64,000 bases of DNA from positions 45,433-109,432 of the forward strand of contig JAUVXV010000013.1 in the NCBI GenBank assembly GCA_030603365.1, written 5' to 3'. The DNA comes from Candidatus Heimdallarchaeota archaeon. GTDB taxonomy: Archaea; Asgardarchaeota; Heimdallarchaeia; Heimdallarchaeales; Heimdallarchaeaceae. The position numbers and the translations under genes were made by a program. The first letter of the stretch is position 1. Each line of letters begins with the position of its first letter. The notes under the pieces were generated by a model. That model was not told the DNA's origin. It did not search any database and was given only the letters and a program-made list of their open reading frames with translations. This document shows, in pieces, positions 12,162 through 61,799 of the stretch.

Positions 12162-12275
12162 AACTGAACGAATTCATAATCAAGTTTTAATACTCCTATT
12201 TGAAACTTGATGTGGTTCAAAACGCAAAATTATCTCGTAAAGAATAAAGATAAAAAAGGATAGTTGGGGGATAAA

Positions 12276-13187
12276 ATGCAGAAGGAAGAATTATTCGAGA
12301 TTCTTGATAGTTATCTTTTTAGTAATTCTCGTCTTGATGAAAAGAAACTGAGTGAAAAAATCCAGATAAGTCAGAAGAATATAAAGGACTTTTTCTCTCA
12401 GAAATCAGAGGAAATGGGTTTTATTAGAGATGGAAGTTCTATTTTCTTTGCACATGAAATTATAAGAGAAAATATTGAAGACATAAATGAATCCTTTTGG
12501 AATTGGTATCTTCGTTGTGTCCCCAGTTATAGTGATCTTGCATGGGAAGAAGGAGCAGCAATTGCTGATACCTCAAGAATAAAAATAATTCCCTTTAGAA
12601 CATCTTCCAAGAGTTTTATCCAATCATTTACAGCTCGAATATTAATTCTAGGTGAAGAAAAAACAGGTAAACAATCATTTGTTTTTGCTCTTTCAGGAGA
12701 TTCACTGAATAGACCAGCTCCGGGTGTATTTTCAGGAAAAATCTCAAGATTTTTAGATGAATTTGAGACTGATTTTGAGAGTATAATTTTGGATATTCCG
12801 CCAGATTCTCCACTTTGGATTTATGCAAAAGCTTCATTTGGAGTTATCCTTACATATGATCTTTCGGAACCACAGACTTTTGAAAAATTACTATATTGGC
12901 TAGATGTTTTCATGGATTCATATTCTTATGAATTATGTCCTCCCATAATGCTATTGGGAACAAAAATGGATTTACTTACTCAAGAAGAAATTACTGCATC
13001 TAGAAGAAAAGCAGAAATATTGAGAGAGCAGATAGAACAAGAATATGGAACGATAGCCTTGAATGAACTAATCTCCTTAACAGAAGGGGGTAATGTTTTA
13101 AACTCATTTGAGAATTTTGCTAAAACAGTTCGTCAATGGTATCAAATTATTAAACAAGAATATCTTGATGATAATCCGATGGCTTAG
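12276..13187 (+). CDS. divergent small-GTPase-like protein with about 120 aa N-terminal extension and a degenerate G3
   Basis: P-loop-like ILILGEEKTGKQS; G4-like LLGTKMDL (TKxD). The G3 position reads ILDIPPD instead of DxxGQ. ATG 12276 is preceded by GGGGG; the ORF track starts at TTG 12264. Confidence 0.45.
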   Translation: MQKEELFEILDSYLFSNSRLDEKKLSEKIQISQKNIKDFFSQKSEEMGFIRDGSSIFFAHEIIRENIEDINESFWNWYLRCVPSYSDLAWEEGAAIADTSRIKIIPFRTSSKSFIQSFTARILILGEEKTGKQSFVFALSGDSLNRPAPGVFSGKISRFLDEFETDFESIILDIPPDSPLWIYAKASFGVILTYDLSEPQTFEKLLYWLDVFMDSYSYELCPPIMLLGTKMDLLTQEEITASRRKAEILREQIEQEYGTIALNELISLTEGGNVLNSFENFAKTVRQWYQIIKQEYLDDNPMA

Positions 13188-17517: not shown

Positions 17518-18279
17518 ATGAACAAAAATCATCTATTAGATAATATGTCACTCGAACCAAAAAGAGCTTACAAAATTGTTCTTATAGGTGATCCCGAAGT
17601 AGGTAAAACTTCAATTAGAAGAAAGTACATGGGAAAGTCATTTAGAGCTGACTATCTAAAAACACTAGGAGCAGATTTTGCAGCTCAAAAAGTTAATGTG
17701 GAAGGAGAATCAGTTCTTTTAACAATTTGGGATTTAGCAGGTCAATCTATTTTTCATGGAATGAGATCTTCCTTTTATCATGGTTGTAAATGTGCATTAG
17801 TTGTTTTTGATGTTACCAACCCCCAAACCTTAGAAAATTGTTATAAATGGGCTGAAGAGGCAGCTAACTTCGCTAAAAGTTCCATGAAAGAGATTTATCT
17901 TATAGGAAATAAAATCGATTTAGTAGATGATCGTTTAGTCAACCATGACGCAATAGCGAGCATCGCTGAGAAATTCAGAATAGCTTTCAAATTTCCTGTA
18001 GAAATCTATGAAACTTCAGCTTTAACAGGAGAAAATATAATTGAACTCTTCGAACATATGAGTAGAAGATTAATCATTGGTGACGAAACTAGAGAAGAGC
18101 AACTAGAAGTGCAATCTGAAAATGAGCAACAGGTAAATGAAGAAAAAATCATTGAAGAGGGAGAAAAAACAATAAGTAATGAAACCATAATTAAGATGCT
18201 TGAAGAACTGGAAAATAGAATAAACAACATTACTACTGACTTAAGTGAAATAAAGAAACAACTAAAAAATGTTGATTAA
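17518..18279 (+). CDS. Rab/Ras-like small GTPase with C-terminal coiled-coil extension
   Basis: G1 GDPEVGKTS, switch I T in YLKTLG, G3 WDLAGQ, G4 GNKIDL, G5 ETSALTG. The C-terminal about 70 aa are acidic coiled-coil with no CAAX. Confidence 0.85.
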   Translation: MNKNHLLDNMSLEPKRAYKIVLIGDPEVGKTSIRRKYMGKSFRADYLKTLGADFAAQKVNVEGESVLLTIWDLAGQSIFHGMRSSFYHGCKCALVVFDVTNPQTLENCYKWAEEAANFAKSSMKEIYLIGNKIDLVDDRLVNHDAIASIAEKFRIAFKFPVEIYETSALTGENIIELFEHMSRRLIIGDETREEQLEVQSENEQQVNEEKIIEEGEKTISNETIIKMLEELENRINNITTDLSEIKKQLKNVD

Positions 18280-19696: not shown

Positions 19697-19714
19697 AATT
19701 AGGTGAGCTTAAAT

Positions 19715-21703
19715 ATGAAAAATAAATCAGCGATTTTCGCATTACTTATAGCCACTAGCTTACTCACAATGAGTGTTTTTAATGCAAACGTACAAGTACA
19801 AGGTGCTGACGCTATCGCCAACATAGTCTTCAAGACTAACGGTGGTGGTGTAAGACCTGACTATGGTTTGTTCATTGCACAATATCTACGTGATTTAGGT
19901 ATAGAAGTAGAAGTAAAAGTCGAAGAATGGTCCGTATTCGTAGGAACATTGATTCTGACACACGATTTCGATATCGGTGTAGTCGGTTTATCCGGTGGTG
20001 GAGCATCTCCAGACATGAGAGATGTGTATGCCGAAGGCGGATCATTGAACCTATTCGGGTTAGGTCCAGATTTACCATATGGTAATCAAAGCGAACAAAT
20101 GCAAGATATCGGTGTAACTATTACTGATCTTGATGCCAGACAACAACATTATTACGATTGGCAACAACTAATGATGGATAAACTTATCCCAATATTACCA
20201 TTGTTTTCCCCCAGATCTTATGTAGCAACATGGGCAAATACAATGGGATATGAAGGTAGATGGGGAATAGTTGATTCCTTGCCATATATGTACTATGATG
20301 GCTATCACGAAGGTCAAGTATCACTTACCGAATTCACCATTGCAGACGCAAATTGGAGAGAACTCAACCCATTGTTCACAGATGATACATCAAGTTCATT
20401 CATCTGGAATTTAATGTCTGAACCAATTCTAACATTCAGTCCAGATCTTGCACCTCTAAAAACTGGTCTAGTTATCGATTGGGAACAAATTGACGAATTC
20501 CATTGGAAATTCTATATGAGAGATGATGTCTATTGGAACCCATCCTACAACGTTACTGGAAGAACAGCAAACTCTGACCCACTAAGTGCTATACCAACTA
20601 GTGAATTGATGCTAGGTTTGAAAGCTGGAGATTACAGCGATGGTACTAACCAACAAGTTACTGCAAAAGATGCCGTATTTACCTATCTAGTTTGGTCAAA
20701 CGCAGTAGTCAGTGAAAGTACAACTTATCATGATTGGATATCAGAATGTTATGTAGATCCAGTAAATGAATTAGCTTTCCACGTTCATATAGATGGTAAT
20801 CCAGACACTCCTGATGTAGAACAATATGTAGACTTTTGGGCAAGACTCCCATGGGATATTATGCCAGAATTCTTCTTGAACTCAACCGACCCAACTGTAA
20901 CATACACAGATGGTGGAATTGAGTGTATTGGTCTATATGACTTAATGATAAACACACCTGAGTGGGTAACATTCAGTACCTCTGCATTTGGTTGTGGTAA
21001 GTATATGTTAGATTACTACATCAGAAACTCTGTTACAATTCTACAAAAGAGCCCATTCTGGTTAGGTATAGGCGCAATCGACGATACTCCTCAAGATTTA
21101 GACTTCGATACATTTATCATTCGTGTTATTCCTGATTCCTCTGCTGAATTAGCAGAATTCAAAGCAGGAAAATTGGATTGGACTGGTCTAACAGCATTCC
21201 CAGCAGAAAGAAAACAAATGCAAGCAGATCCAAGATTTGATGTGCAAACATTTATTACTAGTTCTATGACCTTCATGTTCTTCAATCTACGAAGACCATT
21301 TGTTGGTGGTTCAGATAACTTCGATTATCTTGACACTGTTGGTAAAGAGGAATATACAGTAGGTATAGCAGTACGTAAAGCAATTTGTTATGCGATTGAC
21401 AGAGCTGAGATGAACCAAGTACTACATGATGGTGAGTATCTGATAGCACACAGCGTTCTGTATCCATCCACAGCGTTCTATTACTACAACGACATCATAA
21501 AATACAATTATGATATCCGTTCCGCTTTTGAATGGTTAGGTGCTGCAGGTTATCCTGTACCAGATTTACCACCGGAAACTACTCCAGTGACATCTACTCC
21601 ATCAATACCAGTTGAAACTACTCCAACACCATTCCCATTGTTTGGTGTGATTGCTGCTATCGGTGCTGCATCCGCAATTGCATTCTATCGCAGAAGAAAA
21701 TAA
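19715..21703 (+). CDS. family-5 (OppA/DppA-like) solute-binding protein, apparently circularly permuted, with PGF-CTERM-like anchor; paralog 1
   Basis: Family-5 signature-like IDWEQIDEFHWKFYMRDDVYWNPS sits at residue ~255. The N-terminal ~200 aa resemble the C-terminal lobe of OppA/DppA (EEWSVFVGTL..DFDIGVVGLSGGGASPDMRD). C-terminus PLFGVIAAIGAASAIAFYRRRK. SD AGGTGA precedes ATG 19715. Confidence 0.65.
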   Translation: MKNKSAIFALLIATSLLTMSVFNANVQVQGADAIANIVFKTNGGGVRPDYGLFIAQYLRDLGIEVEVKVEEWSVFVGTLILTHDFDIGVVGLSGGGASPDMRDVYAEGGSLNLFGLGPDLPYGNQSEQMQDIGVTITDLDARQQHYYDWQQLMMDKLIPILPLFSPRSYVATWANTMGYEGRWGIVDSLPYMYYDGYHEGQVSLTEFTIADANWRELNPLFTDDTSSSFIWNLMSEPILTFSPDLAPLKTGLVIDWEQIDEFHWKFYMRDDVYWNPSYNVTGRTANSDPLSAIPTSELMLGLKAGDYSDGTNQQVTAKDAVFTYLVWSNAVVSESTTYHDWISECYVDPVNELAFHVHIDGNPDTPDVEQYVDFWARLPWDIMPEFFLNSTDPTVTYTDGGIECIGLYDLMINTPEWVTFSTSAFGCGKYMLDYYIRNSVTILQKSPFWLGIGAIDDTPQDLDFDTFIIRVIPDSSAELAEFKAGKLDWTGLTAFPAERKQMQADPRFDVQTFITSSMTFMFFNLRRPFVGGSDNFDYLDTVGKEEYTVGIAVRKAICYAIDRAEMNQVLHDGEYLIAHSVLYPSTAFYYYNDIIKYNYDIRSAFEWLGAAGYPVPDLPPETTPVTSTPSIPVETTPTPFPLFGVIAAIGAASAIAFYRRRK

Positions 21704-28899: not shown

Positions 28900-30950
28900 A
28901 GAGTTTCAAGAAAACAAAAAAGAAAAAGAAAAAGAGAATTAAAACTTATTTTCTTCTGCGATAGAATGCAATTGCAGATGCAGCACCGATAGCAGCAATT
29001 ATACCAAACAATGGGAGTGGTGACTCGGTAGTTTGTTGAGGTTCTGTTGGAGTAGATACCTCTGGAGTAGTTTCCGGTGGTAAATCTGGTACAGGATAAC
29101 CTGCAGCACCTAACCATTCAAAAGCGGAACGGATATCATAATTGTATTTTATGATGTCGTTGTAGTAATAGAACGCTGTGTATGGATACAGAACGCTGTG
29201 AGCAACAAGATATTCTCCATCATGAAGAACCTGATTCATCTCAGCTCTGTCGATAGCATAATTCATCGCTTTACGTACTGCTATACCTACTGTATATTCT
29301 TCTTTACCAACAGTGTCAAGATAAACGAAGTTATCTGCACCGCCAACAAAAGGACGACGTAGGTTGTAGAACATATAACTGAAACCTGCTGCAATAAATG
29401 TTTGCACATTAAATCTTGGATCTGCTTGCATTTGTTTTCTTTCTGCTGGGAATGCTGTTAAACCAGTCCAATCCAATTTTCCTGCTTTGAATTCTGCTAA
29501 TTCAGCAGAGGAATCAGGAATAACACGAATGATAAATGAATCGAAGTCTAAATCTTGAGAAGTTCCATCTATTACTCCTATACCTAACCAGAATGGGCTC
29601 TTTTGTAGAACTGTTACTGAGTTTCTGATGTAGTAATCTAACATATACTTGCCACAGCCAAATGCAGAGGTACTGAATGTAACCCATTGTTCGGTATTAA
29701 GCATATCAGCGTATATACCAACACATTCAACCCCACCATCAGTATATGATACGGTTGGGTCGGTTGAGTTCAAGAAGAATTCTGGCATAATATTCCATGG
29801 GAGTCTTGCCCAAAAGTCTACATAATGCTCAATTTCAGGAGTGTCTGGATTACCATCTATATGAACGTGGAAAGCTAATTCATTTACTGGATCTACATAA
29901 CATTCTGATATCCAATCATGATAAGTTGTACTTTCACTAGTAATTGGGTTTGACCAAACTAGATAGGTAAATACGGCATCTTTAGCAGTAACTTGTTGGT
30001 TAGTACCATCGCTGTATTCTCCAAATTTCAAGCCTTGCATCAATTCACCAGTTGGTATAGCACTTAAAGGATCAGAGTTTGCTGTTCTTCCAGTGACGTT
30101 GTAGGATGGGTTCCAATAGACATCATCTCTCAAATAGAATTTGAAGTGGAATTCGTCAATTTGTTCCCAATCATAAACCAAACCAGTTTTTAGAGGTGCA
30201 AGATCTGGACTATATGTCATGATATTTTCAGCCATTAAATTCCAGATGAATGAACTTGATGTATCATCTGTGAACAATGGGTTGAGTTCTCTCCAGTTTG
30301 CATCTGCAAGATTGAATTCGGTAAGTGATACTTGACCTTCATGATAGCCATCATAGTACATGTAAGGTAAGGAATCAACTATTCCCCATCTGCCTTCATA
30401 TCCCTCAGTATTTGCCCATGTTGCTACATAGGATCTGGGGGCATAAAGAGGCAGTATTGGTACAATCTTGTCCATCATCAGCTGTTGCCAGTCGTAATAA
30501 TGTTGTTGTCTGGCATCAACATCAGTTATTGTTACACCGATATCTTGCATAATTTCAGATTGATTACAATATGGTATATCTGGACCTAGTTGATAACAAT
30601 TCAGTGAACCGTCTTCGGTATATATGTCTCTCATATCTGGAGAAGCTCCTCCTCCTGATAAACCGACTACACCGATGTCGTAATCGTGTGTCAGAATCAA
30701 TGTTCCTACGAATACGGACCATTCTTCAACCTTTACTTCTACTTCTATACCTATATCACGTAGATATTGTGCAATGAACAGGCCGTAATCAGGTCTTACG
30801 CCACCACCGTTAGTCTTGAAGACTAAGTTTGCGATGGGCTCAACACCTTGAACCATAAAAGAAGAATTACTTCCACTCATTACAAGAAGATTTGCTAGGA
30901 TGAAGATTGTAAAATATATTGCTTTTTTTTTCATATAAGCTCGCCTAACT
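28900..30950 (-). repeat. copy 2 of the inverted duplication
   Basis: See copy 1. Confidence 0.8.
28946..30934 (-). CDS. family-5 solute-binding protein, permuted, PGF-CTERM-like anchor; paralog 2 (inverted near-identical copy of 19715..21703)
   Basis: Protein about 85-90 percent identical to paralog 1 over its length. Same RBS context: TTAGGCGAGCTTATATG here versus TTAGGTGAGCTTAAATATG in copy 1. ATG at 30934. Confidence 0.65.
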   Translation of the reverse strand: MKKKAIYFTIFILANLLVMSGSNSSFMVQGVEPIANLVFKTNGGGVRPDYGLFIAQYLRDIGIEVEVKVEEWSVFVGTLILTHDYDIGVVGLSGGGASPDMRDIYTEDGSLNCYQLGPDIPYCNQSEIMQDIGVTITDVDARQQHYYDWQQLMMDKIVPILPLYAPRSYVATWANTEGYEGRWGIVDSLPYMYYDGYHEGQVSLTEFNLADANWRELNPLFTDDTSSSFIWNLMAENIMTYSPDLAPLKTGLVYDWEQIDEFHFKFYLRDDVYWNPSYNVTGRTANSDPLSAIPTGELMQGLKFGEYSDGTNQQVTAKDAVFTYLVWSNPITSESTTYHDWISECYVDPVNELAFHVHIDGNPDTPEIEHYVDFWARLPWNIMPEFFLNSTDPTVSYTDGGVECVGIYADMLNTEQWVTFSTSAFGCGKYMLDYYIRNSVTVLQKSPFWLGIGVIDGTSQDLDFDSFIIRVIPDSSAELAEFKAGKLDWTGLTAFPAERKQMQADPRFNVQTFIAAGFSYMFYNLRRPFVGGADNFVYLDTVGKEEYTVGIAVRKAMNYAIDRAEMNQVLHDGEYLVAHSVLYPYTAFYYYNDIIKYNYDIRSAFEWLGAAGYPVPDLPPETTPEVSTPTEPQQTTESPLPLFGIIAAIGAASAIAFYRRRK

Positions 30951-31569
30951 ATTCTTTTATTATGTGAATATTTTCTCACACTATGAGACTGACCTTTGAG
31001 GCCTTTATTATTATTTTGGTCACTTTTCGCTAGAACCCCCGAAACATTAATAAGTGCATGTTTCGCTCGACGCGTATTTTTTAAAATTTGTAGTAATCAT
31101 CTCAAGCATTCTATTTGATGGAAAGCTGTTCTTTGATGGCTATTGACGGAAAATAGAGTTCCTTTTAGGAGCACTCAACTACTTTTCAACTGATCTACAT
31201 AAGTGTCTTTCAAGCCATTTAATTATGTCCACTGATTCCAGAAAGAGTAATTTGAGACGAGAGGGGAAAGTAATCTTGTTTCCAATTTTAGTTTTTGTTA
31301 CTGTTACTTACATCTTTAGTGATGGTCATTCTCCGATATATAAAAGACAGAAAGGGTAAAAAAGATGATATCTTTGAAATAGAATTTTACCCTTCAAATG
31401 GTAATGATGTTGTCTTCTCCCCTGACAGATGATGCTTACATATAAGGAATTTTTTTAGAACTGGTGTCTTTGCTTTTTTTCTTTCCCTAGAGATTATTAA
31501 TAAAACCCGTCATAAGTTACATAAAGATTAATTATCTCCTAATACCAAGTGATTTTGGAATAAACAAGG

Positions 31570-39576: not shown

Positions 39577-40560
39577 TCAAAAGAGACTATTTCTTCTTTT
39601 TCTAATAATCAAAACAGCTAAGCCAATAATAGCTAAAATACTTGCAAATAGAAAGAAACTACCTTCTTCAGTTTGTTCTACTTCATATTTCATGGGATAT
39701 TGATCAAAAGAATCAGCAGGTCCATCTATGCTGTATGTTCCTGCACCGTCGTAATCATCCCACCAATTGCCATATTGGTGTAAAGCTTCAAACCATTGAT
39801 TACTGCTTCCTTCGTCATACCCTTGACTGGTTATGTCCCCAGTTCTAACTCCATCAATATTGTAAGTGGGCTCATTAGAGTTGTTAACGAAGGTGTTGTG
39901 ATAAATAATATTATACATACTGATGTTTCCGACAATGACTAATCCATGTTCATTGCTGTTACGAATGCTGTTGTTGGTAATATCATTATAACTGGAATCA
40001 CGAATATTGATTCCTTGGTAATAACTTAATAGAATATCATTGCCTTTGATAGTGCAATGGTGAGCTTCGTTTAAGTGAATACCTTGCATAAATCCTGATA
40101 TAGTGTTGTTCTCAATCAGAGTATAATTTGAACCAATAGCAATTCCTCCTCCATAAGTGATGCTGCTGGATAAAGTGTTATTGAGTATCTTTGCAGTTCC
40201 AGACAGTACTGTAGACTGAATAAAAATGCCTATATATTTGGTGACAATGTCACAATTTCGAATAATAAAATAAACGTTGGTACCGCTAATCACAATAGCC
40301 GGATTCCCATCACCAGTAGAAACAATATCTAAGTTTTCAATAAGATAGGGGTTAGATGAAGAACCATTACCAGTAAAACCAAGCGTATCAAAGTCATCAT
40401 CTGAATTAATAAAAACAGGAAAAGAAGCATCTAAATCCGCTAATCGACTAGATGAAGACCCAGAGTTTAAAATTGCAGAAGAAGGGTGTATTGTCGAGCT
40501 GTAAACAAGTAAACAGCTGAAAATAATTATGATTAATATCTTTTTATTTAATGATACCAT
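39577..40560 (-). CDS. parallel beta-helix repeat surface protein with C-terminal TM anchor (paralog 1 of 3)
   Basis: Repeated N[NT]xIxxN/G rungs (IRNCDI, NNTLSS, ENNTISG, KGNDIL, TNNSIRN). C-terminal ...WWDDYDGAGTYSIDGPADSFDQYPM followed by TM plus RKRRN. Confidence 0.55.
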   Translation of the reverse strand: MVSLNKKILIIIIFSCLLVYSSTIHPSSAILNSGSSSSRLADLDASFPVFINSDDDFDTLGFTGNGSSSNPYLIENLDIVSTGDGNPAIVISGTNVYFIIRNCDIVTKYIGIFIQSTVLSGTAKILNNTLSSSITYGGGIAIGSNYTLIENNTISGFMQGIHLNEAHHCTIKGNDILLSYYQGINIRDSSYNDITNNSIRNSNEHGLVIVGNISMYNIIYHNTFVNNSNEPTYNIDGVRTGDITSQGYDEGSSNQWFEALHQYGNWWDDYDGAGTYSIDGPADSFDQYPMKYEVEQTEEGSFFLFASILAIIGLAVLIIRKRRNSLF

Positions 40561-40627: not shown

Positions 40628-41065
40628 TCATTCAGTATTGTCTTGTCCAGCTTTCACAGGAATTTCTTCGGGAGTGGTGGCTGGAACTTCTGCTTTGTCC
40701 TCAACAGGGACACTAACAGGAGTGGGACGAACAGAAATGGGTTCAACTCCAAGTTTTTGTAGTGTTTTAGTATACTCATCAGTGAGGAAGAAATCTTTCA
40801 GAACAATCCAACTAGTAGGGATGATAACTGGAAGCTTACCTATACCTTCTGCACAAGAATGAGAAATCTCATCAAGGGATTCTTTTTTATCAACAGTACC
40901 GCATTTTAGACAAATCTTCCAACGAGCAGATCGTTGATAGAGCTTCTCAACGGTTTCATTATAAATTTCAAAACCTGAACTTAAAGGAGCATCTTGCAGG
41001 TCAAGTGTAAAACGACGGGCTCGAGATTTTATTTGTGTTTTCTCAGCATCTTTGACATCTGGCAT
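40628..41065 (-). CDS. C2HC zinc-ribbon small protein, family member A (unrecognised family)
   Basis: YQRSARWKICLKCG...HSC...LPVIIPTSWIVLKDFF is shared with four paralogs. Good SD AAAGGAGG upstream. Confidence 0.6.
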   Translation of the reverse strand: MPDVKDAEKTQIKSRARRFTLDLQDAPLSSGFEIYNETVEKLYQRSARWKICLKCGTVDKKESLDEISHSCAEGIGKLPVIIPTSWIVLKDFFLTDEYTKTLQKLGVEPISVRPTPVSVPVEDKAEVPATTPEEIPVKAGQDNTE

Positions 41066-41161
41066 TTATTTTCCTCCTTTAAATTTTTATTATATGTGAT
41101 ACATACTAATACATATTATATATATGTGTATGTGTTGGCAAATCTTGCCTATAAACATATT

Positions 41162-41356
41162 TTGTAATCATAATAGACACATAAAGCGGAAACTTCTGCC
41201 TCAATCTTTACTTTCAATTCCTATTAATTAAACATCATTAAACATATTTTACCTTACTATTTAGCATTATTTCGTTTTTTTATAATCTGTTCATATGTCA
41301 TCATAAAGCGGTAATATATGTAATCATAGTTTTGTTTAAATACTATGTCATCATAA
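41162..41356. repeat. iteron-like array of short direct repeats in an AT-rich divergent intergenic region
   Basis: T[AT]TGT[CA]ATCATA[AG] at 41162, 41294, 41317 and 41344 (two copies are the identical 13-mer TATGTCATCATAA). CATAAAGCGG[AT]AA at 41180 and 41302. ATTAAACAT tandem at 41227 and 41237. Confidence 0.7.
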
Positions 41357-41392
41357 CTATTACATAGAACAAGAAAACCAAGGTGGAAAAAA

Positions 41393-41596
41393 ATGAAAAT
41401 GGAAATACAAAAACTGTTGGACCGTGAGCTAAGGAATCTTTACGCGGATCTAACTCAGCTTACCAAAGCTCTTGCAACCAGATATCCTAGAAAACATGAT
41501 CGAGTGTATATCGATTATCGCATTGAAACCACAACTAGGTTTTCGAAACTCGACTTACGAAAGTATTGCGAAAACAAAGGTGATAGAATTGAATGA
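41393..41596 (+). CDS. small coiled-coil protein (67 aa), divergent paralog of 43257..43406
   Basis: MKMEIQKLLDRELRNLYADLTQLTKAL aligns with the N-terminus of 43257..43406. The same upstream cassette CAAGGTGGAAAAAAATG is present. Confidence 0.5.
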   Translation: MKMEIQKLLDRELRNLYADLTQLTKALATRYPRKHDRVYIDYRIETTTRFSKLDLRKYCENKGDRIE

Positions 41597-41735
41597 ACAA
41601 GAATTACACACACTGTTGGATCAGAAAATAAAAGCACTCCATAGGGAGTTGAATCAGCTCAGAAGAGCTCGTCGCACCAGAAGAGCAAAAGCTCGTTCTA
41701 GGTACTCAATCGGGCAAATACCCCTTCAAGGGTAG
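41589..41735 (+). CDS. small coiled-coil Arg-rich protein (48 aa, TTG start), close paralog of 43257..43406
   Basis: (M)NEQELHTLLDQKIKALHRELNQLRRARRTRRAKARSRYSIGQIPLQG versus MTNNELSRTLDQEIRALQKELNELKRARRALRANTRSERLLTQRIPLAG. SD AAGGTGA lies 7 nt upstream of TTG. Confidence 0.5.
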   Translation: MNEQELHTLLDQKIKALHRELNQLRRARRTRRAKARSRYSIGQIPLQG

Positions 41736-41775
41736 GCTCGGTTCTTGCTCCTTTTAATAACCCAGGTGATATGAA

Positions 41776-42039
41776 ATGGCTGTAAAAATACAATTAAAAT
41801 CCTCTCATGACCTAATTGCTGAACATGTAAAGATACTATATGATTTCGAATTTGTAGATGAAGAAAGTTATTACTTATTCCTTAAACAATTAGTTGAATC
41901 ATTACATGCTTCAGTAGAAGAAGAATCAAAGAAAGCTGCAAAACGTATATATGAGAAAACCATTGAGGCAGAAGTTCGAAATGCTAAGGACAAAATCATG
42001 GCAAAGAAGCTTCTCCTGTTTGGGTCAATGTACTATTAA
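41776..42039 (+). CDS. hypothetical small protein (87 aa)
   Basis: SD CCAGGTGAT precedes the ATG. Helical, acidic/basic; belongs to the same micro-gene operon. Confidence 0.45.
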   Translation: MAVKIQLKSSHDLIAEHVKILYDFEFVDEESYYLFLKQLVESLHASVEEESKKAAKRIYEKTIEAEVRNAKDKIMAKKLLLFGSMYY

Positions 42040-42179
42040 TTTGTATGAGGAATATCCCGTGATAAATCTAGCTCTCTTAAAACCTAATCCCGCTTATACC
42101 CTTCCTGGGTATAGCGATTTTTTACGATCACTAAGAAAATTACTAGAATTGAAAACAAAAGAAAATAGAGGTGTCTAAT

Positions 42180-42332
42180 ATGGCAAACAAAGTTGTAAAT
42201 ATAAGAAGAAAAATGAAATATGAAAAAATGAAAGAGAATGCATGGAAAGTTATGGGATATGCATTTTTATTTACCCTATTAATGGTATTGGGGCTCATAA
42301 CCTTAACTGCTTTATCAAATTTCTTACTTTAG
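42180..42332 (+). CDS. single-TM micropeptide (50 aa), family member 1
   Basis: MANKVVNIRRKMKYEKMKENAWKVMGYAFLFTLLMVLGLITLTALSNFLL. SD AGAGGTG. Not in the ORF track because it is under 60 aa. Confidence 0.5.
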   Translation: MANKVVNIRRKMKYEKMKENAWKVMGYAFLFTLLMVLGLITLTALSNFLL

Positions 42333-42549
42333 AAATTTGACACTTTTTTTAATTTTTATTACATTCAGTTACCGATTTTTAGAAATATATTGTTTCTATG
42401 TTGAAATTGTGTAGTAATATTTGAACACACATCTATTCAAATCCGCTTCTAATGCTTATTTTGTAGGTGTTCCTAAATCTAAGGTAATTTGTGCCAACGG
42501 GCAAATGTTTATTAACATGTATGAGTTTATTCTACATGAGTAACGTAAT

Positions 42550-42978
42550 ATGACCGACATGACCAATGCTCGAAAAAAAGCAGTTCGATCTAGAGCAAGA
42601 CGTTTTACGCTAGATCTATGGGATGCTCCGCTTGATTCAGGCTTAGAACTTTATCAAACAATAATTGGTGAATTATATGAAGGGTCATCAAGAATTAGAC
42701 TTTGTTTAAAATGTGGCGCTATTGATTCTATTCAAGATCTTAAGAAAGATAACCACGCTTGTGCTCTTTCATTTAAGAGTTTTCCAGTTTTAGTAACTAC
42801 AAGTTGGAAACTATTATCTGACTTCTTTCTAACAGGTAGATATGTTGAAGCCTTGCAACATCTTGGTGTTGAATTAGGCGTACGAGAAGTTGTTACTGTT
42901 CCAGTTGAGACAACTCCTGAAGTACTTACTACTATTGAAGAACAAGAAACTGCACGTGTATCTGTGTCAGATAAGTAA
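42550..42978 (+). CDS. C2HC zinc-ribbon small protein, family member B
   Basis: RSRARRFTLDLWDAPL...SSRIRLCLKCG...HAC...FPVLVTTSWKLLSDFF. Confidence 0.6.
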   Translation: MTDMTNARKKAVRSRARRFTLDLWDAPLDSGLELYQTIIGELYEGSSRIRLCLKCGAIDSIQDLKKDNHACALSFKSFPVLVTTSWKLLSDFFLTGRYVEALQHLGVELGVREVVTVPVETTPEVLTTIEEQETARVSVSDK

Positions 42979-43020: not shown

Positions 43021-43256
43021 TATAAAATACCCCTTTTTTCTATTTGTTTTCCGACATCTTCGGCCATATTTGCCTCTATTTTCTTATTGATTTACTGTGG
43101 TCGTATGTGCAATACAATGCACTAACGACCCAGAAAGGTTGTTTTTTACACCTAAAAAAGATGTCTGAAGAAATCAGACAATTCTTTCTTCTAAAAATGC
43201 CTTTATATATGATGTCGGAGTAAGTCAGACATAGAAAAACCCAAGGTGTAAAAAAA

Positions 43257-43406
43257 ATGACCAACAACGAACTTTCCAGAACACTGGACCAAGAGATCAG
43301 GGCGCTCCAAAAGGAGTTAAACGAGCTTAAAAGAGCTCGCAGAGCCCTTCGAGCTAATACACGCTCAGAACGATTGCTAACTCAGCGCATTCCCCTTGCG
43401 GGATGA
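43257..43406 (+). CDS. small coiled-coil Arg-rich protein (49 aa)
   Basis: MTNNELSRTLDQEIRALQKELNELKRARRALRANTRSERLLTQRIPLAG. Cassette CAAGGTGTAAAAAAAATG upstream. Not in the ORF track. Confidence 0.5.
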   Translation: MTNNELSRTLDQEIRALQKELNELKRARRALRANTRSERLLTQRIPLAG

Positions 43407-43606: not shown

Positions 43607-43872
43607 AATGAAGAAAAGTGTCCCCCACTTTTCCTTTCATTTATTTATTTACGATTATCATCCCATCCAAGAACTCACGCTGTTTGTATCTTGCTGAACA
43701 GACAAACCTGCAGAGCTCACCATCTGCTTGGGATCAGGAAACAACAAACTCTTACTAACCCAGAGCTTGTGTGCTACCGTCTGTTTCCTGATCCTTTCCA
43801 TTTCTTCAGGATGATAATCAGATTTGAACTCACTAGAGACTTAAAACATGGATCACAAAAGAGGTGTAAAAA

Positions 43873-45233: not shown

Positions 45234-45396
45234 ATTTTTACCTTCCTACTACATCAAAAAGCTGAACCATTATAAGTTTTGCAGAATCAAGATATATTAT
45301 TGATTTATGTCTTTCAGAAATTTTTATGTTGTTATTACATATGCAAATATACATTAATATGTTACAAATAATAGGTACATAAGAGTGGTGAGACTT

Positions 45397-45867
45397 ATGC
45401 CCAAAATATCGAAAGCTGAACAACAATTTATACGCTCTCTCGCTAAGAAATATGTCATGAAACTTATAGTTTCTCCATTTAACGAGGGGTTGTTAATTTA
45501 TTCTGATACATATGATTCATTATATATTCGATCAGCAAGATGGAAATTCTGTTTAAAATGTGGTGAGATAGAGTCTACTGAAGAAATGTTAGATGAACAC
45601 GAATTAAAGAAAATGGGTGCTTCTGACCGAAAACAAGCACAAGAAAGAGTACATCAGTGTACAATGGGTATAAATCACTTTCCAGTGCTTATAACAACTT
45701 CTTGGTACAAATTGAAAGACTTCTTTATGACAGACAAATATGTCAAAGCTCTTGAGAATGCAGGAGTTAAGGATATTCCATTTCAGAAGCCTATCTTTGA
45801 GAAGGTACCTATAAAGGTCAAAGCAGAAAAAGCTCGTGAAACAGTTATGCAAGATAGTACTGCTTAA
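45397..45867 (+). CDS. C2HC zinc-ribbon small protein, family member C
   Basis: YIRSARWKFCLKCG...HQC...FPVLITTSWYKLKDFF. ATG 45397 with SD GTGGTGAGA. Confidence 0.6.
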   Translation: MPKISKAEQQFIRSLAKKYVMKLIVSPFNEGLLIYSDTYDSLYIRSARWKFCLKCGEIESTEEMLDEHELKKMGASDRKQAQERVHQCTMGINHFPVLITTSWYKLKDFFMTDKYVKALENAGVKDIPFQKPIFEKVPIKVKAEKARETVMQDSTA

Positions 45868-45961: not shown

Positions 45962-46336
45962 ATGCCTGATATTTCAAATAAAGAAAAAGAAGAAATCAGA
46001 ATATTAGCTAAATGTTTTAGTGGTATTCTTTCTAAAGTTACTTTTAGGAGTGGTTCTCAGATATATTATCTTACATTCAAAAGATTGTACAAGAGATCTG
46101 CTAGATGGAAGTATTGTCTGATTTGTGGGCTGGTAGGTTTACCAGAAGATTTCCGTAAAGAGAAACACAGATGTCCTTCAATGGTTTTTCACAATGTTCA
46201 GGTTTTGGTTTCAACTTCTTGGTTTAAATTGAAAGACTTCTTCTTAAATTCTGAATACAAAGAAGTATTAGAGGAAGTTGGGATAAATCAGAAAAACCAC
46301 ATGAAAATAGATTCAAGTAATGGTTCCAAAACCTGA
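45962..46336 (+). CDS. C2HC zinc-ribbon small protein, family member D
   Basis: YKRSARWKYCLICG...HRC...VQVLVSTSWFKLKDFF. Confidence 0.6.
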   Translation: MPDISNKEKEEIRILAKCFSGILSKVTFRSGSQIYYLTFKRLYKRSARWKYCLICGLVGLPEDFRKEKHRCPSMVFHNVQVLVSTSWFKLKDFFLNSEYKEVLEEVGINQKNHMKIDSSNGSKT

Positions 46337-58347: not shown

Positions 58348-58557
58348 GTCCTTACCTTTCCATAGGTTAATTGTCTATATATATCAATTTTACCTACAGA
58401 AATGAGCATTGTATCTAGAAGAAAAACAATCAATTTATGATTCATTATTCCCTTGTTAACCGGATAACTGATTGTGAAAGGATGGTGAAATCTTCTAAAA
58501 CAAATAAACTTATAAGAATCCTTTCGATATGTGGTTTGCTTATACAGGATGATTCTG

Positions 58558-59001
58558 ATGCCAGATATTCTTTCTTCTGAAAAATCGGAAATTAGAGCCA
58601 TAGCTCAAAAATATGCTCAATCGCTATGGACAATTCCATTTGATAAAGGGATTGTTGCATATGTTAAAACGAACAATAAATTATTCATTCATCCTGCTCG
58701 GTGGAGATTTTGTTTTAAATGTGGGATGATACTGAAAACAAGTCTCAGTAAAAAAGTAGATACTGAGGATGAAACAAAGGATCACTCATGCATTTTGGAG
58801 TTTGAAGAGGTTCCATTATTGATTAAGACTTCATGGTTTCAATTGAGAAAATTTTTCTTAATAGAACAAACACATAAAAAAATCTTACAGGAAATTGGGC
58901 TATCAGAACTTCCTAAACCAGTCATTATTACTAAACTACATGATAAGCAAGAAATAGCTGAAACAGAGACCCCAGAAACTGTTGCTGAAGAATCTTTGTG
59001 A
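58558..59001 (+). CDS. C2HC zinc-ribbon small protein, family member E
   Basis: FIHPARWRFCFKCG...HSC...VPLLIKTSWFQLRKFF. ATG 58558 with SD AGGATGA. Confidence 0.6.
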   Translation: MPDILSSEKSEIRAIAQKYAQSLWTIPFDKGIVAYVKTNNKLFIHPARWRFCFKCGMILKTSLSKKVDTEDETKDHSCILEFEEVPLLIKTSWFQLRKFFLIEQTHKKILQEIGLSELPKPVIITKLHDKQEIAETETPETVAEESL

Positions 59002-59105: not shown

Positions 59106-60422
59106 ATGAAGAAAAAAAACATAATGAAGATAATTATGGTGTCCTTTTTAATTCTGTTTCTGGCTTTTTATTGTGATTTGACTTTCAGCACATCTTCAGT
59201 AATAAACAATGGAATCCACCCCATACTTAATGCAGATCCGTTTATTGTTATCGATGATGATTCTGATTTTTCAAGTTATCCAGGTTATGGAAATGAGACA
59301 CACCCCTATATTATTGAAGGGTTCGACATTGAAGCCCAAACCAGTGATGATGTAGGGATTAATATAACTGGAACAACTATGCATTTTGAAATAAGGAATA
59401 ATGATATCACTGCAGCTGTGTTAGTAGAAGGAGGTATCGGAATTTATGTGAGCAATATTGCACCTAATACTGCTAAAATAATCAATAACAGAGTTAGGTC
59501 TTACAGGACTATCATGTATGTTGAAGAAGCAGAAGGAGTAATAATAAAAGATAACACCTGCCGAAGAATAGGAGTAACTGGGATTGATATAGAACATAGC
59601 CCATTTGCTACAGTAGAAAATAATGCATTGTACGAACTTAATCCGCCTGAAACGAAGGGAAGTGAAACGTTTATAGATGCTTTAGATGCCGGTGAACCTG
59701 ATAAATACTTTGCAATATATCTTGAGAATAGTTCAGATAGCAATATTACTGCAAATTATGTTGATTTAGATGCTAATACGGTAATAGCCGGTGCAGGTAT
59801 TGTAGTCTTTAGCTCAGACAGAATCATAATAGAAGATAATATTGTGAGAAATATTAGAATAGACATTGGTACTTACGAATATCTTGAAAAAGGAGGATTA
59901 TATTTAGAAGATGTTTCTTACGCAACCATTTTCAATAATACTGTTGAACAAACTGATAAATGCAATGTTGTCGCTACAACTTGTGATAATCTTGTGATAT
60001 CAAATAATACCTTTGGAGTTAGCCAAAGCTATGGTATAGTTTTTACAACTACAAGTAACTCCAATATCACATATAATGTCATTCAAGACCATCCAAGCTT
60101 TGGAGTTGATATATCTTCAGGATCAGAAAATAATACTATACATCACAATCATTTCATAGATAACAACGATGGAGGTTCACAAGCAAGAGATTCTGGAACA
60201 AATAATATTTGGTGGGATATAAATACTAGTGAAGGAAATTGGTGGAATGATTGGACTGGGGGAAATTATGATATTAGTGGAACTGCTGCTTCTGTTGATC
60301 CTTTCCCACTTGGAGACCCGATAATTGTACCTGAGTTTTCAAAGCAAATTATCGTTTTGTTGTTGCTTATGTCAACATCTATTGCAGTAGTTCCATTTAT
60401 TAGAAAAAGAAAGAATAATTAG
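59106..60422 (+). CDS. parallel beta-helix repeat surface protein with C-terminal TM anchor (paralog 2 of 3)
   Basis: NNxIT/NNRV rungs. C-terminal NWWNDWTGGNYDISGTAASVDPFPLGDP followed by TM plus RKRKNN. Confidence 0.55.
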   Translation: MKKKNIMKIIMVSFLILFLAFYCDLTFSTSSVINNGIHPILNADPFIVIDDDSDFSSYPGYGNETHPYIIEGFDIEAQTSDDVGINITGTTMHFEIRNNDITAAVLVEGGIGIYVSNIAPNTAKIINNRVRSYRTIMYVEEAEGVIIKDNTCRRIGVTGIDIEHSPFATVENNALYELNPPETKGSETFIDALDAGEPDKYFAIYLENSSDSNITANYVDLDANTVIAGAGIVVFSSDRIIIEDNIVRNIRIDIGTYEYLEKGGLYLEDVSYATIFNNTVEQTDKCNVVATTCDNLVISNNTFGVSQSYGIVFTTTSNSNITYNVIQDHPSFGVDISSGSENNTIHHNHFIDNNDGGSQARDSGTNNIWWDINTSEGNWWNDWTGGNYDISGTAASVDPFPLGDPIIVPEFSKQIIVLLLLMSTSIAVVPFIRKRKNN

Positions 60423-60614: not shown

Positions 60615-61799
60615 CTACCTTTTTCGAATTGCATAACTAATAGTACCTATAAATGATATTAACAAGATTATTGAAAGGATACTGATTGGATATTCTGGTA
60701 TAAGTTCAAGATCTACCGGAGAACCAAGTGGGTAGGGATCATAATTTGAAGCAGTACCATCAATATCATAAACTCCTGGACTTACATAGTCACTCCAGTA
60801 GTTTCCTTCATTTATTGCTGAATCATACCATTCACAGTCTCTATGACCTGTAATAAAATCTTCAATAGCTTGTGATGTACCTCCAGCATTGTTTCCAATG
60901 AAGTTGTTATGATGAATAACACATTCATCAGTATTATTGACTATATCAACACCATAATCTCCATTACCTTCAATTTCATTAAATTGTATGCGGGTGTAAT
61001 CAGAAGAAGCTAGGTATATACCTTGCATTCCATTCTCACATATTGAATTATTTTCTATAATTGTATATAGTGAGCTTACTATAACAAATCCAATGTTGCC
61101 ATTACTTGAAATGTCATTATAGACATAGGTATTAGAATTACTCACCTCATTTGATATTCCATGCAATCCGTTATCAATTAAGATATTTCTCTTAAACATA
61201 CCATCATCTGAACCATTATCTACATAAATTCCTTCATCACCATTTTGATAGCAAGTATTATTTTCAATCCACAATGCTGTACATATATCAACTCTAATTC
61301 CAGTATGGAAATTATAGTTACAATTACAATTAATCACTGTTGCTCCATTGCATCTAATCAGATGAATACCAATACCATCTCCAGCAAGTGTATTTACACA
61401 GGTACAGTTGTCTATAGTTACTAAATTTGGTTGTGCATCTATAATTAGTATACAAACATCAATTGCTGTTATCCAACAATCTCTTATTATGAAATTAACA
61501 GTTATTTGACCGCTAGCTGTTCCATTGATTAATATCCCCCACGGACCTCCACTTGTTATGTTATAGTTCTCAATTACATAAGGATCATCAGGAGAACCAA
61601 CTCCTGAAGTAGCGTAATCTGTGAAATTGTCATCATGTGTTATTATTATATCTGGTATCTCAACTAAATCATCAATTGTGATTTGTGCTTTAGAATCGTT
61701 TTGACGAGATAATGTTATCTGTGAATTCAAAATCAAACCTAAACTGAACAGTATCAGGAAGAGCCCAATACCTAATCCCATTTTATTTATCTTTTTCAT
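60615..61799 (-). CDS. parallel beta-helix repeat surface protein with C-terminal TM anchor (paralog 3 of 3)
   Basis: C-terminal NYWSDYVSPGVYDIDGTASNYDPYPLGSP followed by TM plus RKR. Repeated N-x-[CI] rungs. Confidence 0.55.
   Translation of the reverse strand: MKKINKMGLGIGLFLILFSLGLILNSQITLSRQNDSKAQITIDDLVEIPDIIITHDDNFTDYATSGVGSPDDPYVIENYNITSGGPWGILINGTASGQITVNFIIRDCWITAIDVCILIIDAQPNLVTIDNCTCVNTLAGDGIGIHLIRCNGATVINCNCNYNFHTGIRVDICTALWIENNTCYQNGDEGIYVDNGSDDGMFKRNILIDNGLHGISNEVSNSNTYVYNDISSNGNIGFVIVSSLYTIIENNSICENGMQGIYLASSDYTRIQFNEIEGNGDYGVDIVNNTDECVIHHNNFIGNNAGGTSQAIEDFITGHRDCEWYDSAINEGNYWSDYVSPGVYDIDGTASNYDPYPLGSPVDLELIPEYPISILSIILLISFIGTISYAIRKR

Follow-up and report, generated by a model that had tools for sequence, protein, structure and literature searches.

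A repeat-bearing intergenic region of Heimdallarchaeota as the probable shared control region of two divergent TATA promoters

What are the short repeats that crowd the intergenic region at 41066-41392, between gene A and a divergently oriented operon of micro-genes? A preliminary description had likened them to operator arrays, to plasmid or viral iterons, and to archaeal origin recognition boxes. We analysed the region within the window, that is, the whole 64-kb stretch of DNA, which is Heimdallarchaeota chromosome with ordinary chromosomal genes, and compared it with orthologous loci. The region is probably a control region shared by two divergent archaeal TATA promoters of a tiny-gene cluster known from Heimdallarchaeota alone, in which the repeats would be candidate operators of a regulator.

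Presence and statistics of the repeats

The short repeats are real, all of them being present at the places where they had been described. The 13-mer family TWTGTMATCATAR occurs in four copies on the + strand, at 41161, 41294, 41317, and 41344, packed into 196 bp, and the spacing of the identical pair was confirmed to be 50 bp. The exact pattern, which, like the other repeat patterns used for window counts, was defined post hoc on sequence already seen, is absent elsewhere in the 64-kb window, and its four copies compare with 0.05 expected from shuffles; it does not, therefore, occur at the background frequency that had been named as the finding that would speak against the repeats. When up to three mismatches were allowed, 57 copies were observed window-wide versus 54 expected, which is background. 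CATAAAGCGGWAA is present in two copies, at 41180 and 41302, with a spacing of 122 bp (0 expected), the tandem ATTAAACAT pair was read off the sequence at 41227-41235 and 41237-41245, and ATATGTGATACATA, for which a promoter position had been proposed, maps to 41093-41106, where it precedes the A start codon (41065) by 28-41 bp.

An unbiased test was also conducted, in which the commonest 9-mer and 12-mer, with mismatches and on both strands, were compared with dinucleotide shuffles of the 327 bp. The result for the window was 7/200 and 8/200 shuffles, which is of modest significance, and the top repeated word was AT-rich. These single-locus statistics were significant in most of the loci and were weak for the window and for L008, L014, and L015, and, therefore, the case is not built on them. 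The repeats are not due to chance, and the proof is a comparative one, namely the presence of lineage-specific half-sites at identical offsets in 17 orthologous regions, as described below.

Layout of the two divergent promoters

The TATA boxes and transcription starts at both divergent promoters are predicted ones, assigned from sequence and position. On the left, the ORF of gene A (145 aa) occupies 40628-41065 on the - strand and is preceded on that strand by a Shine-Dalgarno-like GGAGG at 41073-41077, which was also seen before the A orthologues inspected. Upstream of it on the same strand is O_A (41094-41114), a 21-bp dyad in the frame ATGT-N13-ACAT with the sequence ATGTGATACATACTAATACAT, which includes ATATGTGATACATA and lies between the predicted start of the A promoter and a TATA-like element, ATATATATAAT on the - strand (41115-41125), belonging to a ATATATATGTATATC block that is conserved in the alignment of the loci of motif class T2. 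Orthologous A promoters carry the motif of their own class at the O_A position, which is about -228 relative to the TATA box of the operon promoter (TATA_a). Box 1 (41137-41149), ~12 bp ahead of the TATA in the A promoter, is a 13-bp dyad GGCAAATCTTGCC of the form GGNAA-N3-NTNCC; its sequence is conserved in all motif classes, and A' and further A paralogues have the same box in their promoters, 11-12 nt ahead of the TATA.

Between the two promoters, half-site S2 (TTTGTAATCATAA, 41161-41173, + strand) is located at -174 from TATA_a and is followed on the + strand by CATAAAGCGGAAACTTCTGCCTC (41180-41202), the first copy of the second repeat, which includes box 2 (GGAAACTTCTGCC, 41188-41200). 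The GCGGNAA..TGCCTC element of the box 2 region is conserved across all classes. A 15-nt perfect inverted repeat was also observed between box 2 (41191-41205) and gene c (41962-41976); antisense pairing through it was considered and rejected, and the repeat is regarded as lineage-specific or a chance occurrence because it is missing from all of the 11 other loci examined. An AT-rich spacer of ~90 bp (41203-41293) comes next, which includes the ATTAAACAT pair (41227-41245) and is poorly conserved, the T2 alignment keeping only ATTTTGTCG there.

On the right, all on the + strand, the -41 site ATGTCAT-N7-CGGTAAT (41295-41315) contains the second CATAAAGCGGTAA copy; its left half is the window's own motif (copy S3, 41294-41306), and its right half is of the T2-lineage type. 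Half-site S4 (TATGTAATCATAG, 41317-41329), at -18, abuts the predicted TATA box of the a-b-c-d operon promoter, TTTAAATA (41335-41342). The sequence [CT]TTA[AT]ATA was found at this TATA position in 17/17 orthologous regions and in 6/6 module-2 regions examined. The gap from the TATA box to the predicted start (~41366) is spanned by O_a (41345-41365), a 21-bp dyad ATGTCAT-CATAACT-ATTACAT that consists of half-sites S5 and S6. A Shine-Dalgarno-like GGTGG at 41382-41386 precedes gene a, the first ORF of the micro-gene operon (41393-42332), which is composed of a (41393-41596), b (41592-41735), c (41776-42039), and d (42171-42332; with a predicted transmembrane segment), the orthologues having Shine-Dalgarno-like sequences in most loci.

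The layout is repeated 2 kb downstream in a paralogous module (module 2), also on the + strand, with a half-site of its own, ATGTCGG. The A' promoter (42483-42537) has a box GGTAATTTGTGCC at 42483-42495, a TATA TTTATTAA at 42508-42515, and a dyad ATGTATGAGTTTATTCTACAT at 42517-42537, and leads into gene A' (42550-42978), a paralogue of A with 49% identity. A distal element at 43051-43074, a half-site CCGACAT followed by a box GGCCATATTTGCC, is the paralogue of S2 plus box 2, and the b' promoter (43161-43232) has a -41 dyad ATGTCTGAAGAAATCAGACAA at 43161-43181, a TATA at 43202-43209, and a core dyad ATGTCGGAGTAAGTCAGACAT at 43212-43232, ahead of gene b' (43257-43406), a paralogue of b with 56% identity. 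The offsets in the A'-b' intergenic region are those of module 1 (-41, +10) and are conserved in five other genomes. The GGNAA-N3-NTNCC boxes, which have six distinct matches in the window, cluster here, at 41137, 41188, and 42483, with a variant at 43062. The frame ATGT-N13-ACAT was observed five times in the window versus 1.75 expected, four of the occurrences being just upstream of A, a, A', and b', and the core dyad begins 1-2 nt after the TATA in all four promoters (P_a, P_A, P_A', and P_b').

Comparison across Heimdallarchaeota and rival explanations

Synteny of the intergenic region extends over 17 genome loci and over metagenome contigs, and the gene order FAD-oxidase, glutaredoxin, A, divergent a-b-c-d, A', and b' is syntenic in 18 genome loci. 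Each of the 17 orthologous intergenic regions contains 4-7 copies of a 9-mer of its own, at a density of 22 to >100 times that in the rest of the locus (22-fold in the window itself). A repeated half-site of ~10 nt is present in every locus, and its sequence differs by lineage, being TATGTMATCA in the window and TATTACTGCA or ATGTCGGAA in other lineages. Its offsets from the TATA box agree within 1 bp between classes T1 and T2 (-228 inverted, -174, -41, -18, +9, and +22 inverted), of which class T3 has +9 and +22 in common with them; in L001 and T3, a dyad is present in place of the two direct copies at the S3/S4 position. A single 21-bp dyad frame of 7-7-7 nt, between the TATA box and the predicted start, fits all classes, and the two arms vary together between classes (CAT/ATT, CGG/CCT, and CTG/CRG). 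The outer pairs at the core site are complementary in 5-7 of 7 positions in T1, T3, and module 2, and in 7 of 8 in the T2 loci, except for L013 with 5 of 8. Conservation in the T2 alignment extends to the motifs, the TATA boxes, and the GGNAA boxes but not to the 90-bp spacer. Across classes, site positions are kept, whereas site sequence turns over.

The predicted starts gain support from L004, L005, and L008, in which an ATG is located 30 nt after the TATA start, that is, at the predicted transcription-start position, so that their mRNA would be leaderless; these predicted leaderless mRNAs support a start just after ACAT. Taken together, the sites fixed to the base pair around both TATA boxes, the 21-bp dyads, and the concerted change between lineages support the operator-array reading well, and the pattern would be the signature of operators that co-evolve with a locally encoded dimeric autoregulator.

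In the other readings of the preliminary description, the repeats would be iterons or origin recognition boxes. Replication, either chromosomal or that of an integrated plasmid or virus, would then begin here, and DNA unwinding would take place in the AT-rich 90-bp spacer. We consider this highly improbable. Like plasmid iterons, the repeats are several and short, two of them are direct and ~2 helical turns apart, and their sequence changes along with the presumed binding protein between relatives; like the ORB and mini-ORB elements of Orc1/Cdc6, they are repeated, partly inverted elements around an AT-rich, poorly conserved stretch, and the genes diverge around 41-45 kb, with a shallow local minimum of cumulative GC skew at ~39-45 kb. 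Direct neighbours among the repeats are only S3 and S4, 23 bp apart, the other copies being 133 bp off or inverted. However, the GC skew of the window just follows gene orientation. No Orc1/Cdc6, Rep, integrase, or phage family was matched among the ORFs scanned in the 64-kb window (those of at least 100 aa plus the small ORFs of the cluster, nine of the large ones being without any Pfam match), no AAA+ initiator family was found among the scanned window ORFs of at least 100 aa, and no Rep or initiator family was found among the cluster proteins in Pfam, PHROGs, NCBIfam, and PADLOC. Furthermore, the locus is not a replicon with a rep gene but syntenic chromosomal DNA in 18 genomes, beside the FAD-oxidase gene; its sites, mostly dispersed or inverted, are fixed to within 1 bp relative to the TATA boxes and start codons of both genes and are positioned by promoter, not by unwinding element, and the same layout is found again 2 kb away and before other A paralogues. 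The sequence gave no support to either the iteron or the origin reading, and the region should not be annotated as an origin or as a mobile-element iteron array.

Alternatively, the dyads might be transcribed into 5' leaders and work there as RNA hairpins that control termination or translation, with b perhaps binding them in the way that lambda N binds boxB. The core dyads could form hairpins of 7-8 bp, and b resembles an arginine-rich RNA-binding motif; we nevertheless regard this reading as very improbable, since the dyads end at the transcription start predicted from the TATA box and the ATG follows directly after the dyad in L004, L005, and L008, where the dyad would thus not be transcribed. 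The sites at -174 and -18 are lone half-sites, a C/T mismatch at position 5 of the arms is retained, unrepaired, in T1 and T3, and scanning the window with Rfam and for tRNA genes gave no hits. We judge it extremely improbable that the repeats are similar by chance or because AT-rich intergenic DNA is of low complexity, or that they are sites at which an invertible promoter segment recombines. The weak k-mer statistic of the window alone, with its AT-rich top word, would fit the former, and the inverted copies at both ends of the region would fit the latter; however, chance is contradicted by positional conservation with motif turnover in at least 17 loci, and inversion by a single orientation in 23/23 orthologous regions examined, with no recombinase gene match in the window.

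Proposed regulation and candidate binder

In the shared control region, P_A would drive transcription leftward into gene A and P_a rightward into the a-b-c-d micro-gene operon. Each promoter would consist of a TATA box followed within 1-2 nt by the 21-bp dyad ATGT-xxx-N7-xxx-ACAT reaching up to the predicted start, supplemented by putative extra half-sites at -18, -41, and -174 of the P_a TATA and by two 13-bp GGNAA-N3-NTNCC dyads between the promoters. A dimeric, sequence-specific DNA-binding protein encoded in the cluster may occupy the core dyads, and the bound dyads would block the recruitment of TFB and RNA polymerase at both promoters, resulting in negative autoregulation. The upstream half-sites may allow a cooperative, possibly looped or wrapped, occupancy that couples both promoters, and the TATA-abutting site could act positively at low occupancy. 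The half-site would have co-evolved with its binder, as suggested by the three motif classes at identical positions in different Heimdallarchaeota lineages, and the different half-site in the A'/b' module would prevent cross-talk between the two modules.

MDR1, Phr, LrpA, and NrpR are archaeal repressors with operators between the TATA box and the transcription start. The palindrome found here is likewise immediately downstream of the TATA and covers the predicted start, which predicts a block of RNA polymerase recruitment; those repressors belong to known families (DtxR, wHTH/ArsR, Lrp, and NrpR), whereas the candidate A is an orphan zinc-knuckle protein. The modules also resemble bacterial and phage antitoxin or immunity-repressor operators in being small and in tandem, each with its own promoter-overlapping dyad and with specificity diverged between paralogues, but the promoter is of the archaeal TATA type and no toxin, antitoxin, defence, or phage family was detected. 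More generally, archaeal regulators bind operators beside TATA/BRE and block or recruit the basal machinery (PMC12993045), and Ss-LrpB and Lrs14 are known examples of regulators whose own control regions contain clusters of several imperfect dyads (PMC2995911). In the case of Ss-LrpB of Sulfolobus solfataricus, of the Lrp/FFRP family, several imperfect dyads are present in the regulator's own promoter, as here, with one site immediately before the promoter; binding by the individual dimers is cooperative and may lead to wrapping of the DNA, and autoregulation is positive or negative by occupancy, whereas Lrs14 represses via promoter occlusion (PMC2995911). In contrast to those systems, the cluster contains neither an Lrp gene nor an Lrp/AsnC, Lrs14, or other known DNA-binding domain, its dyad measures 21 bp (7-7-7) rather than 13-15 bp, and the array is shared by two divergent promoters and has a duplicate of different specificity. 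A 5-3-5 format like that of the 13-bp FL11 site is seen only in the GGNAA-N3-NTNCC boxes, and this is a resemblance alone (PMC2995911).

The locus could serve as a test case that requires few assumptions, as it offers two TATA promoters for which starts are predicted, a candidate 21-bp operator that comes in three identically placed natural specificity variants, and a paralogous module in the same genome, and as the candidate binders are few and could be produced recombinantly or synthetically.

With regard to the binder, an a/b-family micro-protein could be the reader of the array, either by itself or in combination with A. In these proteins, a coiled-coil helix comes before a segment rich in Arg and Lys, which recalls a bZIP in reverse order; in b, RRARRTRRAKARSR comes after an amphipathic helix, and the N-terminal helix is common to a and b according to tblastn cross-hits. 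Every dyad-bearing micro-gene promoter is also followed first by a gene of this family (a in module 1 and b' in module 2), and the first gene in L004, L005, and L008 encodes an a-like protein with a Lys-rich tail. However, the basic segment of b is near-identical at loci with wholly different motifs (LKRARRTRRAKARSR, LRRARRTRRAKARSR, and LKRARRARRAKAQ), all array sites are kept in L004, L005, and L008, which are without b, and the C-terminal halves of a vary widely among loci that have the T1 motif in common. A bZIP zipper fork reads adjacent half-sites, to which the half-site spacing of 14 bp, centre to centre, is a misfit. An a/b-family reader is, therefore, rather unlikely, and the preliminary suggestion of b, the Arg-rich peptide, as the array-binding protein is disfavoured, b being an unlikely specificity reader given its near-invariant basic segment and the full array in three loci lacking it.

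The most likely binder of the operators is the zinc-knuckle protein A, to which we give about an even chance. A has an invariant CxxC...HxC zinc knuckle (C52, C55, H69, and C71) and a basic N-terminal helix, its architecture being a basic helical hairpin, the CCHC knuckle, and two helices, for which no related fold was detected. The AlphaFold2 model (mean pLDDT 77) had no fold match below E = 0.3 by Foldseek against PDB and BFVD, a profile search against PDB sequences gave only an insignificant match to the SorC HTH (E = 2), and scans of A, A', a, b, c, d, b', e', and f' with Pfam, NCBIfam, PADLOC, and PHROGs gave nothing meaningful. Family members turned up in Heimdallarchaeota-type contigs alone: among 36 homologues, those with a named source are all from Heimdallarchaeota and none has a Pfam domain, and an exhaustive HMM search of 1.84 billion representatives retrieved only ~24 A relatives or sequence clusters, with no informative domain fusion. 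The residues beside the knuckle track the motif class, being SARWK in T1, SSRLR in T2, and KAR[IL]R in T3; an attempt to derive a recognition code from them failed, as the class-tracking residues also follow phylogeny, and in the T2 genomes SSRLR is common to A and A' although their operators differ.

If A is the binder, it would represent a new DNA-binding fold and a natural example of an operator and its regulator diverging together after duplication. More tentatively, with a likelihood that we place a little short of even, the A family may be an unrecognised, Heimdallarchaeota-restricted class of archaeal transcription factors, in which at least five tandem paralogues in the window would each autoregulate via the 21-bp ATGT-xxx-N7-xxx-ACAT dyad; divergence of its inner bases once the genes had duplicated would insulate neighbouring modules of membrane and Arg-rich micro-proteins from one another. 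The apparently solitary A genes in L025 and L030 were checked for autoregulation, the contigs being too short or too AT-rich; in L025, the sequence of which is very AT-rich, the frame is kept at the A promoter and the a-like gene is lost. No dyad-frame promoter was found without an A-family gene at or beside it, and, over all loci, the exact frame was present within 75 nt upstream of 18/63 A-family gene hits, compared with 1/166 control ORFs.

Repeated half-sites and their turnover among loci

The intergenic region at 41066-41392 is flanked by gene A (40628-41065, minus strand, 145 aa) and, on the plus strand, a row of tiny genes, namely a (41393-41596), b (41592-41735), c (41776-42039), and d (42171-42332). 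Every repeat listed for it in the preliminary description was confirmed to be present. The 13-mer TWTGTMATCATAR starts at 41161, 41294, 41317, and 41344, with zero further copies in the 64-kb window (0.05 expected), CATAAAGCGGWAA is present at 41180 and 41302, ATTAAACAT at 41227 and 41237, and ATATGTGATACATA occupies 41093-41106, that is, 28-41 bp ahead of the start of A. Because these patterns had been picked after inspection, we added an unbiased test, in which the top-repeated 9-mer or 12-mer, with mismatches allowed and on both strands, was compared with dinucleotide shuffles of the region. As a result, the values for the window region were just 7/200 and 8/200, and the 13-mer with three mismatches allowed occurred at the background frequency; the repeats, when judged from the window alone, are therefore no more than suggestive.

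The A-to-a region of 17 loci was then searched for its top-repeated 9-mer without a prior. Each of the 17 had its own 9-mer in 4-7 copies at similar distances from the start of A, and the density of this word was 22 to more than 100 times that in the rest of the locus. Three half-site classes were distinguished: T1, TATGTMATCA (the window, L001, L002, L004, L005, and L008, plus the metagenomic L019 and L020); T2, TATTACTGCA (L003, L007, and L009-L013, and also L021, L022, L024, and L026); and T3, ATGTCGGAA (L014-L017). With offsets counted from the first T of the conserved TATA box [CT]TTA[AT]ATA (41335-41342 in the window), the T1 and T2 half-sites lie, within 1 bp, at -228 (inverted), -174, -41, -18, +9, and +22 (inverted), and those of T3 at -246, -153, -32, -19, +9, and +22. 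Between classes, the sequence is swapped at all sites together and the positions are kept. A chance origin of the repeats is excluded, since the offsets from the TATA box are held across loci. Conservation in the T2 alignment covers the half-sites, the TATA elements of both promoters, and a pair of GGNAA boxes, whereas the 90-bp spacer between these elements varies freely.

Promoter anatomy and the second module

A single frame, consisting of a 7-nt half-site, a 7-nt spacer, and an inverted half-site, fits all classes (T1, ATGT-CAT-N7-ATT-ACAT; T2, ATTA-CTG-N7-CRG-TAAT; T3, ATGT-CGG-N7-CCT-ACAT). The pattern ATGT-N13-ACAT was found 5 times in the 64-kb window against 1.75 expected, and four of these dyads are directly upstream of genes: A (41094-41114), a (41345-41365, the core dyad O_a), and the paralogues A' (42517-42537) and b' (43212-43232). 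Each of the four starts 1-2 nt past a TATA-like element and ends at the expected transcription start, which in archaea is about 25 bp past the TATA centre. Transcription is predicted to begin near 41366 (operon) and near 41093 (A), which in both cases gives a 27-nt leader carrying GGTGG or GGAGG as the ribosome-binding sequence. In L004, L005, and L008, the ATG of the first gene comes 30 nt after the TATA start, directly behind the dyad, which independently supports the predicted start position. Leaderless mRNA is common in archaea, and that of the first gene behind the array in these three loci would be leaderless; its product ends in a Lys-rich tail, the loci lack b and c, and a DEAD-box helicase gene is next.

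The 13-mer copies at 41344 and 41294 are the left arms of O_a and of a dyad at -41, respectively, the copy at 41317 is a solitary half-site directly next to the TATA box, and that at 41161 is the distal half-site at -174. The two copies of the second repeat, CATAAAGCGG[AT]AA, differ in origin: the one at 41302 is the spacer and right arm of the -41 dyad, and the one at 41180 overlaps box 2, a GGNAA box. The -41 dyad of the window (41295-41315) is a hybrid of its own T1 left arm (ATGTCAT) and a right arm of the T2-lineage type (CGGTAAT), and it may have been left over from a switch in specificity.

The GGNAA-N3-NTNCC boxes (41137-41149, 41188-41200, and 42483-42495, with a variant at 43062-43074) represent a separate 13-bp dyad, which is unchanged across motif classes. 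In A-family promoters, the box is 11-12 nt upstream of TATA, where archaeal activators usually bind (PMC2995911). Its 5-3-5 format is that of Lrp/FFRP sites, and a second, conserved factor may bind there. A perfect 15-nt inverted repeat (41191-41205 and 41962-41976) also links box 2 with the coding sequence of c; this repeat was absent in 11 of the 11 other loci checked.

A' and b', which are 49% and 56% identical to A and b, constitute a second module, and their 278-bp intergenic region repeats the layout of module 1, with a distal half-site and box (43051-43074), a dyad at -41 (43161-43181), a TATA box (43202-43209), and a core dyad at +10 (43212-43232), followed, as in module 1, by ACATAG, about 15 nt, GGTG, and then ATG. 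The half-sites are ATGTCGG/ATGTCTG, and the arrangement is kept in L001, L003, and L010-L012. Since the layout is repeated with other half-sites, one genome holds two copies of one control architecture, with differing predicted specificities. The module 2 half-site resembles the module 1 half-site of the T3 lineage, where a single module of this kind is present, and this fits a duplication followed by divergence of module 1.

At least five A paralogues are present in the window (40628-41065, minus; 42550-42978, 45385-45867, 45962-46336, and 58531-59001, plus), all of which retain CxxC...HxC, TSW, and FF at 32-46% identity to A, with no Pfam match. Genes for NosD-like right-handed beta-helix proteins are at 39577-40560 (minus), 59106-60422 (plus), and 60615-61799 (minus), and the first two follow A and the 58531-59001 paralogue, respectively, on the same strand. 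The protein downstream of A has a hydrophobic stretch at its C-terminus, and the pairing also occurs in L001; A paralogues may control NosD-like surface proteins. The small membrane-protein genes e' and f' are separated by 266 bp, within which a perfect 13-nt inverted repeat, GGATCAGGAAACA/TGTTTCCTGATCC (43731-43743 and 43782-43794, gap 38 nt), might form a hairpin or act as a terminator-like element.

Genomic setting and alternative readings

Protein A has 36 database relatives, none with a Pfam domain, and all the source-named ones are from Heimdallarchaeota. A scan of one genome per species gave 18 loci, of which 17 carry a Heimdallarchaeota and one a Thorarchaeota label, with a common order: FAD-oxidase, glutaredoxin, (NosD-like), A; divergent a-b-c-d; A', b', and small membrane proteins; and further A paralogues. 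The window contains ordinary chromosomal genes, among them those for Ras-family GTPases, an electron-transfer flavoprotein, an M29 peptidase, and DEAD-box helicases; neither a tRNA gene nor an Rfam match was found in it. Because the gene order is shared by the 18 loci and ordinary chromosomal genes surround it, the cluster is chromosomal DNA inherited vertically and not a mobile element. The Thorarchaeota-labelled L008 is yet syntenic with the Heimdallarchaeota loci, and its label may be a binning error. Two small GTPase genes (12264-13187 and 17518-18279) are of the Ras/Roc/Arf type, a eukaryote-like signature typical of Asgard archaea. Paralogous family-5 solute-binding protein genes on opposite strands (19703-21703, plus; 28946-30979, minus) both overlap stretches of raised GC (0.39 versus about 0.33).

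The repeats had been likened to operator arrays, plasmid or viral iterons, or archaeal origin recognition boxes. Against the latter two, the scanned ORFs of the 64 kb gave zero matches to Rep, Orc1/Cdc6, or integrase families, the locus lies in syntenic chromosomal DNA, site positions are linked to promoters, the layout is duplicated, and the GC skew, proposed as a check for an origin, just tracks gene orientation. The inverted arms might instead form RNA hairpins, but the dyads are upstream of the predicted starts, lone half-sites are among the sites, and an arm mismatch is retained rather than repaired. An invertible segment is likewise disfavoured by the absence of a recombinase match and by the single orientation in 23 of 23 orthologous regions. 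The operator-array reading held up, with dyads and half-sites at fixed TATA offsets whose sequence turns over by lineage.

Candidate binders and proposed control

The sites fit operators of a dimeric, sequence-specific DNA-binding protein that would co-evolve with them, which points to a locally encoded autoregulator with a narrow regulon. A dyad filling the TATA-to-start interval is predicted to repress by blocking TFB/RNA-polymerase recruitment, the general archaeal mode (PMC12993045; Lrs14, PMC2995911). Through the extra sites (-18, -41, -174, and at the opposite promoter), the two promoters would be coupled by cooperative binding, with the DNA possibly looped or wrapped; Ss-LrpB binds three sites in its own control region in this manner (PMC2995911).

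An operator array at archaeal promoters is an already known kind of element; among those described, the control region of Ss-LrpB with its several sites comes closest, along with repressors that bind between TATA and the start. The present array does not belong to the Lrp system or another named regulator family, since the cluster encodes no domain of these kinds. The novelty lies in the candidate regulator family, an orphan only in Heimdallarchaeota (24 clusters among 1.84 billion representatives), the 21-bp dyad, and a clear-cut natural series of variants in specificity, among them a pair of paralogues within a single genome.

We give A about an even chance of being the operator binder. Every dyad-bearing promoter found has an A-family gene at or adjoining it, and, over all loci, an exact ATGT-N13-ACAT occurs at most 75 nt upstream in 18 of 63 A-family gene hits versus 1 of 166 control ORFs. 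Two features of A are a basic helix conserved at the N-terminus (IKSRARRF) and a CxxC...HxC knuckle that is invariant. The AF2 model of A (mean pLDDT 77) comprises a helical hairpin, a knuckle of three strands, a further two helices, and an acidic tail that is disordered. The knuckle-adjacent residues track motif class (T1 SARWK, T2 SSRLR, T3 KAR[IL]R); however, they also follow phylogeny, and in T2 genomes SSRLR is common to A and A' despite their different operators, both of which count against A. Also against A, Foldseek of the model versus PDB and BFVD found no relative, and the sole hint from sequence searches was an insignificant SorC HTH match. If A proves to be DNA-binding, it would represent a new fold.

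The a/b family is an improbable binder, and the rest of the probability falls to an unlinked or combined factor. Gene b had been suggested as the binder, but it probably does not determine specificity: loci with unrelated motifs have a near-identical basic segment in b, and L004, L005, and L008 keep all sites without this gene. The C-terminal halves of a vary widely among T1-motif loci, c is lacking in many loci and in module 2, and d, e', and f' are small membrane proteins. The b-family peptides (41592-41735 and 43257-43406, and orthologues in L001-L017) are 47-56 aa long, with a nearly invariant L[KR][RK]ARR basic stretch behind an amphipathic helix, and all end in Gly (...PLQG, ...PLAG, ...LIYG, or ...PISG), a strictness that could point to processing or conjugation.
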